Position numbers and translations under genes: made by a program. Below are positions 5,980-43,524 of a stretch of DNA of 64,000 nucleotides, piece by piece; positions within the stretch are counted from its first letter, which is position 1; every line of letters begins with the position of its first letter. Source of the stretch: Escherichia phage vB_EcoM_DE7. Where the stretch lies: sequence record OL825705.1. One strand, given 5' to 3'. The notes beneath the pieces are model-generated. The model worked only from the letters and a program-made list of their open reading frames with translations, had not been told where the DNA came from and searched no databases.

Positions 5980-14013
<8,034 letters not shown>

Positions 14014-14015
14014 TA

Positions 14016-15203
14016 ATGGCAGTAGGTGAAATTCAAATTAGTGCCTTGCCTCAAGCAGCCTTACCAATTGACCTTAGTGATATCTTCCATCTTAAGCAGG
14101 GTATTGAGGATAAGAGGTGTACTCTTGAGCAATTACTTGCTCCACACTCAAGCCTAAAAAATAACCCTCATGGTGTTACTAAAACACAAATTGGTTTAGA
14201 TAATGTTATTAATGCTCTTCAGTTAGTCGCTGCAAATAACTTATCAGATATTGTTAATGTAGCTGAGGCAAGAGCAAATCTACAGATTATGTCTTCAGAA
14301 GAGGTTAATAACCTTGTTCAGCAACATATCAAGGACAAGAGTAACCCACACAATACAACTAAGGCACAGGTTGGTTTAAGTAATGTTCAGAACTGGACAA
14401 CATCTAACCTGTATAATGAAGATGCAGATAAGTATGCTACAGCAAGAGCAGTAAATAATTTGTACAAGGCTGTTCAGGCTTCTTATCCAGTAGGTACTAT
14501 CCATCTTTCTATGAACTCTGCAAACCCTTCTACATACTTAATTTGTGGAGGTACTTGGGAGTTGGTTTCAAAAGGTAGGGCATTGGTTGGCTATGACTCT
14601 GATACAAGGCCAGCAGGTTCTGTATTTGGTGCTTCGACTGTCACTTTGTCAGTTAATAACATGCCTCAACACTCCCACTCTGTATCTCTTGGTGGTGGTG
14701 GTCACACTCATAATGCAACTGTTTCAATCTCAGCTTTTGATTATGGAACTAAGACTACCAACTCTTTTGACTATGGAACAAAGACCACTAACACAACTGG
14801 TAACCACAATCACGTTGGTAGTGGGTCAACAAGTGCTGCTGGTGCTCACAACCACAGATTGACTTATGAAGCAGGTGGTGGTCTGTCGGAAAGACCTGCA
14901 ATGGTTTGGTCTACAAGGAATGACCAATCGTGGTACTCATCAGATGCTGTCTGCGAAGTCGCTGGCTCGCACACCCACTCTTTTAGCGTTACCACTAATA
15001 CAACTGGTAACCATAATCATACGGTGGGTATTGGTGCTCATAGTCATACAGTTGGTATTGGTTCACATACGCACAACGGTACTGTGACAGTTTCTTCTTC
15101 TGAGCATACACATAGCGGAAACACTAATAGTGTTGGTGGTGGGCAAGCTTTCAACATTGAGCAGCCATCCTTCGTACTGTATGTATGGCAGAGAACAGCT
15201 TAA
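14016..15203 (+). CDS. tail fibre protein with His-box (HxH) repeats
   Basis: 395 aa; C-terminal SHTHS, GNHNHT, AHSHT, SHTHN, EHTHS repeats and C-terminus similar to next gene (…YVWQRTA vs …MAWVRTA). Confidence 0.55.
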   Translation: MAVGEIQISALPQAALPIDLSDIFHLKQGIEDKRCTLEQLLAPHSSLKNNPHGVTKTQIGLDNVINALQLVAANNLSDIVNVAEARANLQIMSSEEVNNLVQQHIKDKSNPHNTTKAQVGLSNVQNWTTSNLYNEDADKYATARAVNNLYKAVQASYPVGTIHLSMNSANPSTYLICGGTWELVSKGRALVGYDSDTRPAGSVFGASTVTLSVNNMPQHSHSVSLGGGGHTHNATVSISAFDYGTKTTNSFDYGTKTTNTTGNHNHVGSGSTSAAGAHNHRLTYEAGGGLSERPAMVWSTRNDQSWYSSDAVCEVAGSHTHSFSVTTNTTGNHNHTVGIGAHSHTVGIGSHTHNGTVTVSSSEHTHSGNTNSVGGGQAFNIEQPSFVLYVWQRTA

Positions 15204-15212
15204 TTTCTTTAC

Positions 15213-15233
15213 AGGGGCTTTATAGCCCCTTTT
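15213..15233 (+). terminator. rho-independent terminator
   Basis: AGGGGCT/AGCCCCT hairpin followed by TTTT after first fibre gene. Confidence 0.5.
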
Positions 15234-15249
15234 AAGAGGAAAATTTATA

Positions 15250-17625
15250 ATGGCAGATTACAAGTTGAGTGAATTAAACTCAATCGACACAATCCGTTCA
15301 GACGACCTTCTTCATGTCAGAGTTAAAAAGAGACCTGAAATGCTGGGTGATGAAGACCGTCGAATGACCTATCAAGACTTCTTAGCGTCTTTTAAACTTG
15401 AAAGATTTGTTCAGATTGCTGGTAGTAATATGACAGGTGACTTAGGGATTGTTAAGCTACTTTATGGCGGTAAGGCAGTATTTGACCCAACAGACTCTTC
15501 TGAGATTAGTATTGGGGATGTTTTAAAGACTTTTAAAATTAACGCAAATGGTCTTAAACTAACTATTGCAGATGCTTCAAGGTCGGCAACTGTTTACCAT
15601 ACTCTGAATAAACCAAGTCCTAATGAGCTTGGGATGAGAACTAATGAACAGAATGATGCAAGGTATGCAAGGCTAAGCGTTGGTAATACATTTAAAGCTA
15701 AACAGATTATCACAGTAGATGGTGAAGCATTAGCACTTAAAAATACTTCTGATATGCCATCTTTATATATTAGAGGTAAAGATTCAGGAGATAGATTAAA
15801 GTGGTACGTTGGATTTAACACAGAAAATAAACTTGGTTTATCTAATAGTGTTACTGGTACAACACTACTATTAGATGATACCGGTATTAACTCAAATAAA
15901 AATCTAAATATCACTGGTCAGGTTAAACCCTCTGATTGGTCTAACTTAGATGCTAGATATTTTACTCAGACAGTAGCTAATCAGAGATTTGCACAGTTAG
16001 CTGGGAATAACACTTTTAGTGGCACTAATACGTTTAAAAAAGATGTTATCTTTAACTCAGATGTTCCGGTTGTTCTTAAGAACTTAACAGCTAATAAACC
16101 ATTGTATATTCAGGGTAAGGATTACCAGAATACTAGTTTGTGGTTTGTTGGTAAGGGTGGAACTGGTACTGAGATTAAATTTTATAACTATGCGACTGAT
16201 ACAGTTTTAGAGTTGTCTGAGACGGCTAGATTTAATAAAACTTTGAAGGTTACTGGACAGGTTCAACCGTCTGATTGGGCTAACATTGACTCTAGATACA
16301 TTCCAGCAGCAACTTTAAGTACTCTTGCAAAAATTAATGCTAAGAATACTTTTTCTCAAGGTCAGATTATTAAGGTTGACGGAGAGGGTATTAGACTTCA
16401 GGGGGTAAATGATACTGGTGGTTTGTTCTTGCGAGGTTATACTTCTGATGGTACTAAGAAGTGGTTTATGGGTACTAATGCTTCAGGTAACTTCACTATC
16501 AGGGAGATGGTGCTAGGCACTGAACTGTCTCTTAGGGAGAACTATATCCAGTTTAATAAGAATGTAACAATTAATGGGCAGGTTCAACCATCCGACTGGG
16601 CTAACCTAGATGCTAGATACTATACAGGTTCAGCAGCAAATGCCAGATATATGTATGCGGAAAGAACTGGTGAAGGTGCTGATGAGGGTGCTATTGCTTG
16701 GAATGCTAAGACAGGAGTATATAATGTCAAGACGGGAGCCGCATCATCAAATCTTGTACTTCAGTTCTATCAGGGGTCGGGGTCTATCCCATCTACGCCA
16801 TCTGCGCAGCTAAGATTTAAATGGGCGAATGGTGGTATGTGGTATAGGACATCAAGAGATGGTAATGGCTTTGAGAAAGGTTGGTCTATGGTGTACACAA
16901 CTGCACAGAAGCCAACCCCTTCAGATATTGGTGCATATACTAAAGCAGAAACTGACCAGAAAATTGCAACAGCAATTAGTGACTCTACAGACCTGAATAA
17001 AATCTATCCAGTAGGTATTGTAACGTGGTTTAACAGTAATGTTAACCCTAATACAGCACTCCCTGGTCTAACTTGGACGTACCTGAATAATGGTGTTGGC
17101 AGAACTATTAGAATTGCAGCAGCAAATGGTTCAGATGTTGCTACAACTGGTGGTTCAGATTCTGTAACGTTATCTGTTGGTAACTTACCTTCACACACAC
17201 ACAGTTTCTCTGCTACCACTTCATCATTTGATTATGGTACGAAGGGCACTAATAGTACTGGTGGACATACTCACTCTGTAAGTGGTACAACAAGTGCTGC
17301 TGGTAACCATGCTCACCACTTAGGTCTACTATTGGTTAATGGCGGTGATGCTCAGTACGGATATACCACTATTGGTAACAGCAAGACAAGAACTCTTGAC
17401 TGGCTTGATAGAAGAGATAACAAGTTCCCTAACACTAACACAACTGGTAACCATACACACACATGGTCTGGTACTACAAGCGGTGCTGGTAACCATTCCC
17501 ACTCTGTAGGCATTGGTGCTCACAGCCACACAGTTAGTGGTAACACTGGTAGTACAGGTTCTGGTTCAGCATTTAGTGTTACTAACCAGTTCTATAAGTT
17601 AATGGCTTGGGTAAGAACTGCTTAA
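15250..17625 (+). CDS. long tail fibre protein
   Basis: 791 aa; three internal ~110-aa tandem repeats each ending GQVxPSDWxNxDxRY; C-terminal HxH boxes shared with 14016..15203. Confidence 0.6.
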
Positions 17626-17632
17626 TCCCTTG

Positions 17633-17697
17633 TTGACTGATTGTTAAGATGGTGTTAATATTCTTTATGGGTATTCTCACCATCTTGGCTGATGAGG
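17633..17697 (+). promoter_or_regulatory. sigma70-like promoter (TTGACT-17-TAATAT) with overlapping 9-bp inverted repeat
   Basis: TTGACT 17633-38, TAATAT 17656-61; AAGATGGTG (17646-54) and CACCATCTT (17678-86) flank the -10. Confidence 0.4.
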
Positions 17698-17704
17698 TGA
17701 TTAA

Positions 17705-17902
17705 ATGCCTACAATCCTAGCAATTCTTCTAAAAAATCTAGGTAGCTTCTTCTGGAAACTCATTTTATCCCTTCTAAGTGAATACATGATTGAGAAAGTG
17801 TTCTTTAGGCTTGCAAGATACCTTGCGAGTAAAACAGACACACCTATTGATGATGAGTTCGTAGATAACTTAGAAAAAGCTTTTAAGGGGGAGAATAAAT
17901 GA
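17705..17902 (+). CDS. small membrane protein (possible lysis/holin-like)
   Basis: 65 aa with hydrophobic N-terminal segment, SD GAGGTGA. Confidence 0.3.
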   Translation: MPTILAILLKNLGSFFWKLILSLLSEYMIEKVFFRLARYLASKTDTPIDDEFVDNLEKAFKGENK

Positions 17903-18270
17903 AGTGGCTAGAGGAGGCTTTTAAAAATAATATTGGTGCAATTGTAGTTGGTATTCTTAGTGTTATTGGGATGTATACCACCATGCAAGTTTCGGAAGGT
18001 AAACAAGAAGTGTCTATCACAACAAAATTACAGCAGTTAGATAATTATTCCAAAAGTAATTATTCAGCTATTCGTGATTTACAGTCTGATATGAGGCTGC
18101 TTCAGCTAGGGATGGAGAACCAGAAAGTCCAGTTAGAGAATGTTAAGGGTGAGAACGCAAAACTTACTAAAACCCTTGATAAATTCTCTGACAGTGTGAA
18201 CAATCTGGCTCAATCAGTATCAGCCCTCCAAGCTATTACTGAAAAGAACACAAAGAATACTGAAAAGTAA
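17899..18270 (+). CDS. membrane-anchored coiled-coil protein
   Basis: 123 aa; N-terminal TM (IGAIVVGILSVIGMY) then heptad-rich region. Confidence 0.3.
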   Translation: MKWLEEAFKNNIGAIVVGILSVIGMYTTMQVSEGKQEVSITTKLQQLDNYSKSNYSAIRDLQSDMRLLQLGMENQKVQLENVKGENAKLTKTLDKFSDSVNNLAQSVSALQAITEKNTKNTEK

Positions 18271-18275
18271 AATTT

Positions 18276-18304
18276 AAGGCTCCTTTTTACGGGAGCCTTT
18301 TTTG
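18276..18304. terminator. bidirectional rho-independent terminator between convergent operons
   Basis: GGCTCC/GGAGCC hairpin with T-run on + strand; sits between + gene ending 18270 and - gene ending 18307. Confidence 0.6.
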
Positions 18305-18306
18305 TT

Positions 18307-19206
18307 TTACTTACCTACTGACAAAGGTGCTTCAATCTTTCCTGCATGTTGGTAATTGTTAATACCACCAATAAAGTCACTTGCAGTGAGATGTTTTAAG
18401 TCACTTAAAGTGTTAAGTGGGATACCAATCTCAAAAGTTGGTGCATGGAACTCTTCATTGTTCATCAGTTCATAAACCTGCTTCATATGATTCTGATAAA
18501 TCTGAGTATCCCCAAAGACACCTATCAAGTACCGTGGAGTGTATCCAGTCATCTTACAAAGAACTTCCAGAATAAAACCATAAGATGCAATATTAAACGG
18601 AAGTCCTAAAAAGGTGTCTACTGAACGCTGATACCATTGTAAGTCAACTTCACCCTCGTTAGTAATATAAATCTGAAACAGAACATGACAAGGTGCTAGA
18701 GCCATTGAGTTTGCTGCAATATCTGCTGCATTCCAAGCATTAACAAGCATGTAACGGTCTGTGATATCACCTTTCATCTTCGTTACTAAGGCCTCTAGTT
18801 GGTCTACAACACAACCGTTATGACCTTCAAAGTTTCTCCACTGAACCCCATAAATTCTTCCACCTGCATCTTCTAACCAATCTTGTTCAGAAGAGTAATT
18901 AGAGCTTAACCAGCGTTTAAAATCATCTGACCAGATTGTCCAACGTTCTCCGTCATTTTCATCCCAAGTACGGTAACGGAGTTCACCAAGCTTATTCTCA
19001 CCGTTCAGGAACCATAAAGCTTCCCCAATAACTTGCCGTGTAAACACCTGTTTAGATGTTAAGAGAGGGAAACCAGTTCGCATATCAAAACGAAACTGAG
19101 GTGGAGCAAATGCAGAGATAACATCTCCAGTTCGTGTAGTACGCAGTTCACCGACGGATAAAACATGGTTCAGGATATTTTTGTAACTTGAATCTGCTTG
19201 TGACAT
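18307..19206 (-). CDS. thyA: thymidylate synthase
   Basis: ThyA signatures in translation: FPLLTSK, ALWFLNG, active-site LAPCHVLFQIY, QRSVDTFLGLPFNIASYG. Confidence 0.9.
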   Translation of the reverse strand: MSQADSSYKNILNHVLSVGELRTTRTGDVISAFAPPQFRFDMRTGFPLLTSKQVFTRQVIGEALWFLNGENKLGELRYRTWDENDGERWTIWSDDFKRWLSSNYSSEQDWLEDAGGRIYGVQWRNFEGHNGCVVDQLEALVTKMKGDITDRYMLVNAWNAADIAANSMALAPCHVLFQIYITNEGEVDLQWYQRSVDTFLGLPFNIASYGFILEVLCKMTGYTPRYLIGVFGDTQIYQNHMKQVYELMNNEEFHAPTFEIGIPLNTLSDLKHLTASDFIGGINNYQHAGKIEAPLSVGK

Positions 19207-41063: not shown

Positions 41064-42260
41064 ATGAACAAAGTACAGATTATTAAAAAGAATGGCTCAC
41101 TTGAAGAACCGGATATCAAAAAAGTTTTAACAGCAGTAACTAAGTCAGCTAACAGGGTTGGTTATAAAGAACTCCCACCAGATGTTATCCAAGCTCTTGA
41201 GTCAGCATTTATGAGGATTCTGGTAAAATCCACTAAGCAGAATAACTTGCTCATCTCGGTAAATGATATCCACAGTATCGTTGAAGGTGCTTTGGCAGAA
41301 GTCAATCACGAGATTTATGAGTCTTACTCAACATATAGAAATTACCGTAAAGAGGTTGCTCAAAATTGGGATGAACTTTACCAAAAGACCAGAGACACGC
41401 TCTTCTTAGGTGACCGTGAAAATGCTAACTTTGACAGTAGTTTAATTTCTACAAAAGGTTCAATTATTCGTGGTTATCTGACTAAAGAAATCTTTAAACA
41501 GTACCATTTAACACCAGAGGAACTTGAAGCCATTGAAAAAGGGTTTATCTACATCCATGACTTAAGAGACCTAATTTTTGGTGGTATTAACTGTTGCCTG
41601 TTCGACATTGGTAAAGTACTGAAAGGTGGCTTTGAAATGTCTGGCATCGAATACTGTGAACCTAAGTCTGTGCTGTCAGCCTTACAGGTTATTGGTGATG
41701 TAGTTCTTTCAGCAACTGCACAGCAATTTGGTGGCTTTACTTTAGCAGAGATTGATAAGGTGCTTGTACCGTATGCTAAGAAGTCTCTACGCTATCATGC
41801 TGAGAAAGCAGCATCTTATGGTATCCCTAAAGAACATTACCATAATTATGTCATGGAGCAGCTACAGATTGAATTAACTCAAGGTTTCCAGTCACTAGAG
41901 ATGAAGCTAAATACTGTACCTTGCAGCCGTGGTGATTTTGCATTCACAACTTTAACATTTGGTTTACTTGACTCAGATATGTCTAATGAAGACAACCGAC
42001 TACAATACATGATTGCAAACACCATTCTTGATGTTCGTATGAATGGACAAGGTAAGAGCAAGAAACCTGTTGTATTTCCTAAACTGGTTTATATCTATGA
42101 CCAGAAGAGACACGATGAGAATATCTGTCAAGGTCAACTGTACAGTAAAGCTATTGAGTGTTGCTCTAAAGCAATGTATCCAGATTTCTTAAGCGTCTCT
42201 GGTCATGGTGCTGTAGCAGAGGCTTTTGAGCGTTCTGGTAAGGTTATTTCACCGATGGGT
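41064..42260 (+). CDS. nrdD: anaerobic ribonucleotide reductase, exon 1
   Basis: N-terminal ATP-cone-like region; reading frame ends ...ISPMG then stop inside the intron. Confidence 0.85.
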
Positions 42261-42576
42261 TAACAAGCTCTATAGCTCATCTAAAACGTGCCTAAACAGG
42301 GAAACTCTACAGGTGTAGACAATCCTGTGCTAAATGATGTACGATGTAAGAAACTATATAACATAGAAGTATTACATGCCAAATAACCTCGAATATGAGT
42401 TTGAGTACATTTAAATGCCGAACGACTAACCGTGATGAATGTAGCGGTGTAGGGTCAAGCGACTCGAAATGGCACGCTACTTAGAAATAAGTAGAAGATA
42501 TAGTCTGGACTTACTGGCGACAGTAAGCAGCTTGAATAAAGCGGGGTAAGCGTAGCGAACTTACCTGAACAACAAG
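42261..42576 (+). other. group I intron (no ORF) in nrdD
   Basis: GUAGACAAUCCUGUGCUAAAU, GACUAACCG and AGAUAUAGUCUGGAC segments resemble the T4 td-type intron core as recalled; exon ends in U, intron ends in G; exons join in frame across PMG|CRAFL. Confidence 0.8.
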
Positions 42577-43524
42577 TGTAGAGCATTTTTATCACCATAT
42601 CATAACGAAGATGGTGAAGAATTTTATGTAGGTCGTGCTAACATTGGTGCTGTATCTTTGAACTTGCCAATGATTTACCAGTATTCTAAAGAGAATGGTT
42701 TAGATTTCTGGAAAGAGCTTGATAAGTACCTAGAGATGATTCGCAGTTTTCACAAGAAACGCTATGAAATGATTGCTAATATGCCAGCAAGTTCTAACCC
42801 TCTTGCATTCACACAAGGTGGTCTGTACAAAGGGACTAAGAAACCTACTGACAAGGTTGGTTGGGATATCGTGAAGTCCTTCACAGCCTCTTTTGGGGTT
42901 ACTGCACTTGATGAATTATCTGTTCTTGCTGAAGGTAAACGACTTCATGAAGTTGGAAGCTATAGTTTTGCATACGATGTTCTGGCATACATTAACATGA
43001 AAACTGAAGAGTTTAAGAACGAAGATGGCTTCTTGTATGCGGTATATGGCACTCCAGCAGAATCACTTTGTGGAACTCAGTTAAAACAGTTCAGAGATAT
43101 GTTTGGCGTTATTAAAGGTGTCTCTGACAAGGAATACTTTACAAACAGTTTCCATATGAATGTTGCAGCAAACATCTCACCATTTGAGAAGCAGGACTTA
43201 GAAGAACCATTCTTCCATATCTGTAGAGGTGGTAGAATCCAGTATGTAAGGGTAGCTAACCCAGAAAACTTACCAGCACTTAAAAGTTGTATTACAAGAG
43301 GCATGTTGAAAGGCTTTTATCAGGGGCTTAACTTTGACTTAGCAATCTGTGAACATTGTGGTAACAGACCAAAGGCTGATGTCGAAGAATGTGAAGTTTG
43401 CCATTCACATGATATCTCTGTGATTAACAGGGTGTGCGGGTACTTGTCATTCACAAAAATTAAAGGTCAGTCTCGAATGAATGACGCTAAGATGGCAGAA
43501 ATTAAGGATAGAGTCTCTATGTAA
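42577..43524 (+). CDS. nrdD: anaerobic ribonucleotide reductase, exon 2
   Basis: Starts CRAFLSPY; C-terminal Zn site CEHCGN ... CEVCHSHD and glycyl-radical motif RVCGYLS. Confidence 0.85.
   Translation, partial: CRAFLSPYHNEDGEEFYVGRANIGAVSLNLPMIYQYSKENGLDFWKELDKYLEMIRSFHKKRYEMIANMPASSNPLAFTQGGLYKGTKKPTDKVGWDIVKSFTASFGVTALDELSVLAEGKRLHEVGSYSFAYDVLAYINMKTEEFKNEDGFLYAVYGTPAESLCGTQLKQFRDMFGVIKGVSDKEYFTNSFHMNVAANISPFEKQDLEEPFFHICRGGRIQYVRVANPENLPALKSCITRGMLKGFYQGLNFDLAICEHCGNRPKADVEECEVCHSHDISVINRVCGYLSFTKIKGQSRMNDAKMAEIKDRVSM

Follow-up and report, generated by a model that had tools for sequence, protein, structure and literature searches.

In T4, the tip of gp37 carries seven irons bound by HxH motifs, and phages with alanine in place of H929 or H931 form no plaques (PMC6957217). 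The same T4-like reading has been published for the tips of the two tail fibres of Escherichia phage JohannRWettstein, or Bas63 (PMC12609058). The Bas63 proteins gp26 and gp27 and the Sf14 proteins gp52 and gp53, all described by cryo-EM in 2025, share one architecture, in which an N-terminal domain binds the baseplate, a gp37-like tip of collar, needle and head carries HxH motifs, and beta repeats are found in the long fibre only. With the work on Felix O1 in 2010 and VpaE1 in 2015, the architecture of this fibre pair is already in the literature. Felixounaviruses are known to depend on the LPS core.

We analysed 64,000 nucleotides of Escherichia phage vB_EcoM_DE7 (OL825705.1), hereafter the window. 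We are confident that positions 14016-17625 encode the receptor-binding fibre pair of a myophage like Felix O1 (Felixounavirus), each fibre with a T4 gp37-type tip. A reading of the bare sequence had placed two tail fibre genes here, and both open reading frames are present exactly as it described, with full-length matches to PHROG tail fibre families.

14016..15203, + strand: gene of the short tail fibre, 395 aa; corresponds to Bas63 gp26, Sf14 gp52 and Felix O1 gp76
15250..17625, + strand: gene of the long tail fibre, 791 aa; corresponds to Bas63 gp27, Sf14 gp53 and Felix O1 gp77
13711..14013, + strand: protein of 100 aa encoded directly before the fibre genes, probable platform of the long fibre; full-length match to PHROG 4141 (E 9e-62)

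The short fibre matches PHROG 2097 (E 2e-137) and is 99.5% identical in amino acids to a GenBank protein of phage ECP2307. The long fibre matches PHROG 4277 over its full length (E 0), is 98% identical to a metagenome protein (P0001), and is covered in Pfam by PF20744 three times, PF12604, PF21939 and PF03335. In DNA, identity to many Felixounavirus genomes is 88-95%, the gene order is kept, and the identity at genome scale is 93-95%. DE7 shares with Bas63 and Sf14 the genus or subfamily, the gene order and the fibre lengths (391 and 792 aa in Sf14), while the heads and beta modules differ as alleles do.

The fibre pair is preceded by baseplate wedge genes and followed by genes for small membrane proteins, an order that matches P54, KhF2 and metagenome contigs. 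As in Bas63, the genes run wedge 2 (489 aa), wedge 1 (~285 aa), platform, short fibre and long fibre. Judging by synteny, the 100-aa open reading frame is probably the counterpart of Bas63 gp25, an analogue of T4 gp9. In a promoter and terminator scan of 13500-18400, only a bidirectional terminator behind lysis-like genes exceeded what shuffles would give. The 'cos site' and 'terminator' features of phage KhF2 in or beside its fibre genes were annotated from patterns of 10-16 nt and are irrelevant to this region.

The short fibre can be followed from shaft to tip as below.

14157..14207, + strand: shaft motif NPH..TK.Q.GL.NV, copy 1 (aa 48-64), direct repeat family D7
14337..14387, + strand: the same motif, copy 2 (aa 108-124), family D7, at a spacing of 180 nt and 71% identity
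14475..14669, + strand: collar of the T4 gp10 C-terminal / gp37 D10 type; PF21939 at E 4e-18, 67 bits
14670..14855, + strand: ascending needle strand with four HxH boxes (H219/221, H230/232, H264/266, H278/280)
14856..14969, + strand: head insert (aa 281-318) between the ascending and descending His boxes, predicted receptor-contacting turn
14970..15113, + strand: descending needle strand with five HxH boxes (H319/321, H333/335, H342/344, H351/353, H364/366)
15114..15200, + strand: C-terminal segment returning to the collar and ending QPSFVLYVWQRTA; aligns with the T4 gp37 C-terminus

The collar also matches the gp10 structure 2FKK in the PDB (E 1e-5) and has the highest confidence in the AF2 model, with a pLDDT of ~87. 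The head insert shows the lowest conservation among 73 homologues (0.22-0.26 identity), and the C-terminal segment reaches 0.78-0.79 among homologues. The descending strand holds a 27-nt tandem unit that encodes VGIGxHxHT. The shaft motif NPH..TK.Q.GL.NV also matches fibres of unrelated phages.

The long fibre has a tip of the same order on a longer shaft.

15250..15672, + strand: N-terminal region (aa 1-141), baseplate-binding part and first shaft segment; function taken from Bas63
15673..15999, + strand: repeat unit 1 (aa 142-250)
16000..16338, + strand: repeat unit 2 (aa 251-363)
16339..16659, + strand: repeat unit 3 (aa 364-470)
16675..16989, + strand: gp37_C-type domain (aa 476-580), as in the Mu S and P2 H fibres; PF12604
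16996..17193, + strand: collar, aligning with the short fibre collar; PF21939 at 27.0 bits, exactly the cut-off, E 9.5e-6
17194..17316, + strand: ascending needle strand with three HxH boxes (H649/651, H673/675, H687/689) and H690
17317..17451, + strand: head insert (aa 690-734), predicted receptor-contacting turn
17452..17529, + strand: descending needle strand with three HxH boxes (H735/737, H749/751, H758/760)

The N-terminal region is nearly invariant among homologues (0.88-1.0). The gp37_C domain scores well above its Pfam cut-off (E 7.6e-16, 58.5 bits against 22.5) and matches the Mu fibre in the PDB (8JU3) at E 3.6e-22; in the 851-855-aa class of long fibres, an unrelated and longer insert takes its place.

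The His boxes tie both tips to T4. The short fibre has nine HxH motifs, starting at aa 219, 230, 264, 278, 319, 333, 342, 351 and 364, and the long fibre has six, at aa 649, 673, 687, 735, 749 and 758. Shuffling each sequence 20,000 times with its composition preserved gave means of 1.4 and 0.26 and maxima of 7 and 3 for the short and long fibre, respectively, so that the density pointed out in the sequence-only reading was not reached once. The crystallised T4 gp37 tip, residues 785-1026 (PDB 2XGF), matches the short fibre at E 3.4e-26 and the long fibre at E 1.6e-21. When the two fibres are aligned together with T4 gp37, their His boxes fall in register with T4 H883/885, 915/917, 929/931, 966/968, 980/982, 989/991 and 998/1000. 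All seven of these iron-binding motifs are matched in the short fibre, which has two boxes more, and six of the seven in the long fibre. On the ascending strand of the short fibre, three of four boxes align (with H883/885, H915/917 and H929/931) and H230/232 lies in an insertion; on the descending strand four of five align (with H966/968, 980/982, 989/991 and 998/1000) and one is extra. In an alignment of 49 sequences for each fibre, the boxes are invariant or nearly so. The homology and the register support the earlier suggestion that these tips resemble the metal-coordinating tips of T-even fibres, and they would be expected to bind metal in the same manner.

The homology to T4 gp37 spans the collar, the needle and the C-terminal return, and the long fibre shares stretches with it exactly, one of them of 18 residues. 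The fibres differ from that of T4 in several respects. In T4, gp37 is the distal half of a kinked fibre made of four proteins, whereas each DE7 fibre is a single short protein directly on the baseplate; the head insert of T4 differs from both DE7 heads, and seven boxes stand against nine and six. Like DE7, the long fibres of Bas63 and Sf14 have six HxH motifs and one extra histidine beside the head. The short fibre of Bas63 is reported with seven motifs against nine in DE7, and members of the short fibre family carry 6 to 11, most often nine. The AF2 models, each built as a monomer from 49 sequences whereas a tip of this type would be an intertwined trimer, show long beta strands in the short fibre needle (pLDDT 56-87) with the head below 50 and a mean of 64.5; the long fibre model has a mean of 49.4 and a tip below 50. 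With the poor short fibre monomer model, a Foldseek search of the PDB gave nothing significant (best E 0.036, weak matches to the gp10 collar) and did not recover 2XGF.

Three tandem repeats of ~110 aa had been noticed in the long fibre, and they align properly. The units are 107-113 aa long and 37-46% identical, with shuffle z-scores of 22-41 and profile-profile (hhalign) probabilities of 99.9-100% for unit against unit. PF20744 (gp37_trimer) covers three stretches (E 1.5e-52, 176 bits against a cut-off of 21.7), and the beta modules are modelled at pLDDT 76-81. Three copies of the linker GQV(K/Q)PSDW.N.D.RY are present, at aa 223, 336 and 443, with spacings of 339 and 321 nt in the DNA (direct repeat family D2). 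As DNA, the repeats are old, and they can be seen only by protein or profile: exact matches shared by two units reach 9-13 nt at most, and Tandem Repeats Finder, run on 13500-18000, does not report the 330-nt units but only 27-30-nt duplications inside the needles. A search for a fourth or fifth related unit in aa 45-141 and in the gp37_C domain found none (z < 1; hhalign probability < 1%), the sole exception in hhalign being a 15-residue linker match at 22%, and an HMM of the unit does not match T4 gp37. The authors of the Bas63 study count five structural beta-helix domains in their long fibre, whereas three are related by sequence in DE7.

The shaft also has likenesses outside the subfamily. 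With their short helical linkers, the beta modules resemble the T4 gp34 rod (4UXG/5NXF; Foldseek E 3e-4 to 1.4e-3), a likeness also stated for Bas63, although gp34 has no significant sequence similarity to the long fibre. In Foldseek, the low-confidence monomer model of the long fibre finds matches for the shaft only, to 8JU3 and gp34 (4UXG/5NXF) at E 1.7e-4 to 1.4e-3 with low TM-scores, and the gp37_C domain, also from a low-confidence monomer model, finds 8JU3 at a probability of 1.0. The Mu fibre S (8JU3) and P2 gpH are homologous to residues 476-576 in the gp37_C-type region.

The needle and head of the long fibre recur in T4-like phages.

17215..17534, + strand: needle-head cassette common to two phage families; its edges are the FDYGTK and GIGAHxHT motifs

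This 320-nt cassette is 89% identical in nucleotides to gp37 of phage sutha. Copies are carried by 43 phage records, six of them Tequatrovirus (five nearly full-length and one partial), and in the cassette tree the Felixounavirus and Tequatrovirus copies are sister clades. In gp37 of Tequatrovirus sutha, N2, BYEP01, AV122 and SHBML-50-1, the needle-head is 86-90% identical in nucleotides to the DE7 long fibre, and in sutha, BYEP01, AV122 and SHBML-50-1 the head is nearly identical as protein. Outside the cassette, gp37 of the Tequatrovirus carriers has no relation to the long fibre of Felixounavirus. Directly downstream of gp37, these carriers have gp38. In DE7, tblastn against the 64-kb window, which covers all but ~24 kb of the genome, found no gp38 homologue beside the fibre genes or elsewhere (best E 0.59). 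Among the gp38 homologues sampled in the phage collection, none belongs to a record of 85-90 kb. Without a gp38 chaperone homologue in the window, folding of the DE7 fibres may differ from that in T4. Dependence on the chaperones gp38 and gp57A is an accessory requirement of T4 and not part of the tip fold.

How the two tips came to resemble each other, and what their His boxes are for, can be read in more than one way. The C-termini had been described as similar, and the alignment bears this out with 37% identity over 255 columns, a pairwise E of 3e-28 and a common W(Q/V)RTA end. A recent duplication within the phage, which would make the fibres near-redundant copies, had been put forward on this basis. 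The overall protein similarity, the shared domain order and several DNA stretches of 50-80 nt at 70-77% identity (families D1, D4 and D5) fit such an event. However, the identity of 37% comes with 25% gaps, the needles differ in length (nine against six His boxes), the head inserts have no sequence relation, and the needle-head of the long fibre is far closer to the T4-like gp37 copies described above than to the short fibre. In addition, the gene pair occurs throughout the Ounavirinae, including Erwinia and Hafnia phages. We therefore give a recent duplication hardly any credence, and that part of the earlier proposal is abandoned. The cassette edges raise a different view of the boxes, namely that they serve chiefly as conserved DNA or protein motifs for swapping fibre segments between phages, rather than as metal ligands. 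A 'His box' recombination idea for T-even fibres reportedly goes back to Tetart et al. in 1998. The shared cassette does start at FDYGTK and stop at GIGAHxHT, and other module boundaries of the long fibre likewise lie on conserved linkers. Yet the two roles can coexist, and the T4 histidines bind iron and are essential (PMC6957217). The boxes are invariant here even beside variable flanking sequence, which points to selection on the protein. A role in swapping at the expense of metal binding is thus very improbable, and we retain the metal-ligand reading of the tips, in which exchange at the same motifs may also take place.

The three 330-nt units could in turn be an active site of expansion and contraction that tunes the length of the fibre. 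A natural two-unit variant of the same allele speaks for this.

16276..16596, + strand: 321-nt segment missing from the natural two-unit variant P0004 (685 aa; loci L002 and L003)

P0004 is 96.4% identical in nucleotides to the DE7 long fibre outside the gap. Its deletion is in frame, joins units 2 and 3 at the 9-nt microhomology TGGGCTAAC, and removes exactly one unit; its breakpoints are ambiguous by 9 nt because they are located in the microhomology. The allele is found in one ENA assembly and one Logan assembly, with ERZ27316425 and DRR127720 as their sources, on contigs that are otherwise syntenic with Felixounavirus. An assembly misjoin is unlikely, since assembly k-mers are much longer than the microhomology. 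The ENA and Logan gene sequences are, however, identical and possibly come from one dataset. Against this one case, three units are present in 119 of 120 representatives of homologue clusters, two in the remaining one and four in none, and the authors of the Bas63 study saw a constant repeat number across 18 species. The divergence of the units, with exact matches of at most 13 nt and no detection by Tandem Repeats Finder, also argues against an active site of this kind. We consider an active length-tuning site improbable. The proposed substrate for expansion or contraction holds only marginally: a contraction is represented by the two-unit variant, and nearly all clusters keep three.

The cassette and the two-unit allele lead us to a tentative proposal, which we regard as possible but somewhat less than an even bet. 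The needle-head cassette would be mobile between two unrelated phage families, Felixounavirus and the T4-like Tequatrovirus, and it would fold without gp38 in Felixounavirus, although gp38 is always present in the T4-like carriers. Linked to this, the long fibre shaft would tolerate the natural loss of one beta module.

The comparisons above establish the gene identities, the homologies, the His-box register, the repeat structure and the module exchanges; for the working of the pair, we infer metal occupancy, trimer state, receptor identity and the order of fibre action. By homology with T4 gp37, Bas63 and Sf14, each fibre would be a homotrimer with its N-terminus on the baseplate. The short fibre would be attached to a wedge protein and the long fibre to a small platform protein, probably the upstream 100-aa open reading frame. 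The long fibre shaft would consist of the three homologous ~110-aa beta modules with their conserved GQVxPSDWxNxDxRY linkers, followed by the Mu-S/P2-H-type domain. In the tip, the collar would be followed by a long beta needle, along which each chain runs out, turns in a small head and returns to the collar. The core of the needle would be held by a line of metal ions, as in T4, where the ion is iron and is bound by six histidines, one HxH from each chain. On this model, nine metal sites are predicted for the short fibre and six for the long, the nine-site needle being an extrapolation given the seven motifs reported for the Bas63 short fibre. The head insert at the turn would touch the receptor, most likely LPS core sugars. 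Since the head inserts are completely different between the fibres, the phage may carry two specificities. Dual receptor specificity, as had been suggested, is plausible in view of head inserts that have no sequence relation and of a head that varies more than any other part within the short fibre family. For the long fibre, the T4-like phage AV122, whose head is near-identical, fails on waaC and waaR LPS mutants. The AV122 study leaves room for a protein receptor, which makes the receptor assignment drawn from it indirect.

Because the architecture was established before, the window adds only another allele pair to it. The long fibre head, in turn, also occurs in some T4-like phages, among them one that depends on the LPS outer core, and this gives a testable prediction of the receptor. 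The natural two-module long fibre indicates that shaft length is not strictly fixed. If the proposal on the cassette is true, the gp38 requirement would be located outside the needle-head, and T4-type tips would be transplantable without the chaperone. The module boundaries at conserved linkers and His boxes are natural cut sites for fibre engineering. This matters because the fibre pair decides the bacterial targets of Felix O1-type phages, which are used in Salmonella typing, food biocontrol and therapy.

The fibre region of vB_EcoM_DE7 encodes the two receptor-binding fibres, short and long, of a Felixounavirus, an ordinary and already characterised feature. Both fibre ORFs of the sequence-only reading are present exactly:

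14016-15203, + strand: short fibre gene, ORF of 395 aa
15250-17625, + strand: long fibre gene, ORF of 791 aa

Each matches a tail fibre family in PHROGs over its full length, the short fibre phrog_2097 (E 2e-137) and the long fibre phrog_4277 (E 0). The short fibre shares 99.5% identity with that of phage ECP2307 and the long fibre 98% with a metagenome protein, while the best phage records in the collection searched reach 90-95% identity to the long fibre. Pfam places a gp10_C collar domain in both fibres, and gp37_C and phage fibre repeat domains in the long fibre as well. In addition, long fibre residues 476-576 match the Mu fibre structure 8JU3 (E 3.6e-22).

Felixounavirus comprises the Felix O1-like myophages of Escherichia, Salmonella and Shigella. 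In a megablast search, 236 phage records match the 3.6-kb fibre region, nearly all of them Felixounavirus, and genomes of this genus align to the first 25 kb of the window at 93-95% identity across 92-96% of its length. The gene order (baseplate hub, spike, wedge subunits, a 100-aa protein, the two fibre genes and two small membrane proteins, with thymidylate synthase and DHFR genes converging on the late operon from the opposite strand) is the same in annotated relatives and metagenome contigs. Features noted downstream of the fibres include:

17705-17902, + strand: small protein of 65 aa with predicted membrane segments, directly 3' of the long fibre gene (PHROG 402)
17899-18270, + strand: small protein of 123 aa with predicted membrane segments and a coiled-coil tail (PHROG 4038)
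18276-18299: perfect 9-bp GC-rich hairpin with T-runs on both strands, between the late operon (+) and thymidylate synthase/DHFR (-)
42191-42527, + strand: group I intron (Rfam RF00028, 55.6 bits, E 2e-11)

Neither small ORF has a relevant Pfam match or resembles a fibre chaperone; the counterpart of 17899-18270 in phage P54 carries a holin annotation. The hairpin is probably a bidirectional terminator. The intron splits nrdD (anaerobic ribonucleotide reductase) into ORFs 41064-42263 and 42658-43524, and the extra HNH homing endonuclease present at this site in relatives such as JH2 and SP116 is missing from the window. The Felix O1 genome paper (2010) stated that introns are absent. ARAGORN finds no tRNA gene in window positions 1-64000, whereas Felix O1 has 22; the cluster must lie outside the window, elsewhere in the genome.

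The finding as the sequence-only reading worded it is already known, because it is described in the Felix O1, VpaE1, Sf14 and Bas63 papers. The Felix O1 genome paper (2010) reported that the C-termini of gp76 and gp77 are like T4 gp37, with nucleotide repeats in common. The VpaE1 paper (2015) found the two C-termini 37% and 54% identical to the T4 adhesin, and the phage to use the LPS core, not a protein. Cryo-EM of Sf14 (2025) and Bas63 (2025) located both fibres, of 430 Å and 630 Å, on the virion. The Bas63 paper (PMC12609058) describes collar, HxH-bearing needle and head in both fibres, as well as long fibre β-helix repeat domains like those of T4 gp34, which are unexpectedly variable with unchanged repeat number. 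It counts seven and six HxH motifs, compared with nine and six in vB_EcoM_DE7.

The His boxes and the repeats are real and well past chance. The nine HxH motifs of the short fibre and six of the long fibre all lie within the last third of the protein, and none of 20,000 shuffles of each protein reaches these counts (means 1.4 and 0.26). The C-terminal regions, which had been called similar, share 37% identity in a 255-column alignment (E 3e-28), and both fibres end in W(Q/V)RTA. The proposed resemblance to T-even long fibre tips is also borne out: both fibres match the T4 gp37 receptor-binding tip 2XGF (short E 3.4e-26, long E 1.6e-21), the short fibre matches T4 gp10 C-terminal domain structures, and a three-way alignment of T4 gp37 785-1026 with both fibres puts the His boxes in register.

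His boxes in register in the three-way alignment (T4 gp37; short fibre; long fibre)
H883/885; H219/221; H649/651
H915/917; H264/266; H673/675
H929/931; H278/280; H687/689
H966/968; H319/321; H735/737
H980/982; H333/335; H749/751
H989/991; H342/344; H758/760
H998/1000; H351/353; absent

In the T4 needle, seven iron atoms stand in line, each held by HxH-type histidines, and H929 and H931 are needed for plaque formation (PMC6957217). Across a 49-sequence alignment of each fibre family, the HxH histidines vary little or not at all. We infer the metal binding, trimer state and receptor of both fibres from T4 and Bas63. The two extra boxes of the short fibre, H230/232 and H364/366, fall one on the outgoing and one on the returning strand, a placement that would fit a needle two sites longer. 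Within the short fibre family, the box count ranges from 6 to 11 (mode 9) and conservation is lowest in the head (aa 283-315, 0.22-0.26 identity). The short fibre needle carries two in-frame tandem duplications, which T4 gp37 also has:

14734-14792: 30-nt unit, SFDYGTKTTN, two copies
15012-15069: 27-nt unit, VGIGxHxHT, 2.1 copies

Such short duplications may be how needles gain and lose His boxes.

The related tips had also been read as a possible recent duplication, for which the data give no support. The tips share only 37% identity, the 38- and 45-aa head inserts have no sequence relationship, needle length differs (nine against six HxH), and the gene pair is kept as far as phages of Erwinia, Hafnia, Yersinia and Pectobacterium.

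The three repeats of about 110 aa reported for the long fibre are likewise present. Their shared end motif, GQV(K/Q)PSDW.N.D.RY, occurs at aa 223, 336 and 443 (DNA spacing 339 and 321 nt), and the units (aa 142-250, 251-363 and 364-470) are 37-46% identical to one another (z 22-41 against shuffles), are mutually related at a profile-level probability of 99.9-100% and give three PF20744 stretches in Pfam (176 bits). As DNA the units are old: Tandem Repeats Finder does not report the 330-nt units, and exact matches between units reach at most 9-13 nt. The suggestion that they are a substrate for expansion or contraction mostly fails: when homologue cluster representatives are searched with an HMM of the three units, 119 of 120 carry three copies and none carries four. 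Among the 120 best homologues, a sample skewed to sequences with the vB_EcoM_DE7-type tip, the N-terminus, linkers and tip are conserved and the unit β bodies and gp37_C domain are variable (0.26-0.5 identity), in agreement with the remark of the Bas63 authors on repeat-domain variability.

Monomer AF2 models are poor, as expected for an intertwined trimeric tip. The short fibre model (mean pLDDT 64.5; collar ~87, needle strands 56-87, head <50) has no significant Foldseek match. In the long fibre model (mean 49.4; tip <50), only the three repeat bodies are confident (70-87), each an all-β module with short helices on either side. Foldseek matches this model to 8JU3 of the Mu fibre at E 1.7e-4 (prob 1.0) and, at E 3e-4 to 1.4e-3, to 4UXG/5NXF from the gp34 rod region of T4. 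These models agree weakly with the published shaft description; for the tip they neither weaken nor strengthen the case made from sequence.

Contraction is nevertheless seen in one 685-aa allele, which departs from the constant repeat number that the Bas63 paper reports in 18 species:

L002 6001-8058 and L003 1313-3370: two-unit long fibre allele (compare window 16276-16596)

It equals the vB_EcoM_DE7 allele (96.4% nt identity) minus an exact, in-frame 321 nt (window 16276-16596), fusing unit 2 to unit 3 at a 9-nt microhomology, TGGGCTAAC, within the conserved linker. Its neighbours are the usual Felixounavirus genes in both an ENA and a Logan assembly, whose contigs reach 67 kb; the gene sequences in the two are identical, and they may share one source. 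In addition, an 851-855-aa class carries an unrelated segment, ~60 aa longer and bounded by conserved linkers, in place of the Mu-S-like gp37_C (window 16660-16910). Many relatives, including Felix O1, align to the long fibre only through residue 662, and thus have a different tip there.

The long fibre needle and head form a cassette, with edges at the FDYGTK and GIGAHxHT motifs, that two phage families share:

17215-17534 (aa 656-762): long fibre needle-head cassette (compare L006 3366-3685, and L007, L008, L009 and L010, all T4-like gp37 loci)

It occurs in 43 phage records, including Tequatrovirus sutha, N2, BYEP01, AV122 and SHBML-50-1, five otherwise unrelated T4-like phages in which the gp37 counterpart of the cassette is 86-90% identical at the nucleotide level (sutha, 89% over 320 nt); T4 itself matches only in two short pieces (77-82%). 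This cross-family identity overlaps the range within Felixounavirus (88-97%), the copies of the two genera form sister clades in a neighbour-joining tree, and the head protein sequences are almost identical. AV122, with the same head, does not infect waaC and waaR LPS mutants (PMC10844046). Because of this, and because Felixounaviruses depend on the LPS core, outer-core LPS would be the likeliest receptor of the long fibre head. In all T4-like carriers gp38 lies directly 3' of gp37; the 64-kb window holds no gp38 homologue (best E 0.59), and the homologues sampled in the phage collection include no Felixounavirus-sized record.

Three points extend the published picture: the allele with two units, the cassette shared between families and the lack of gp38 in the window. 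All are minor and fit the mosaic evolution for which phage fibres are well known.
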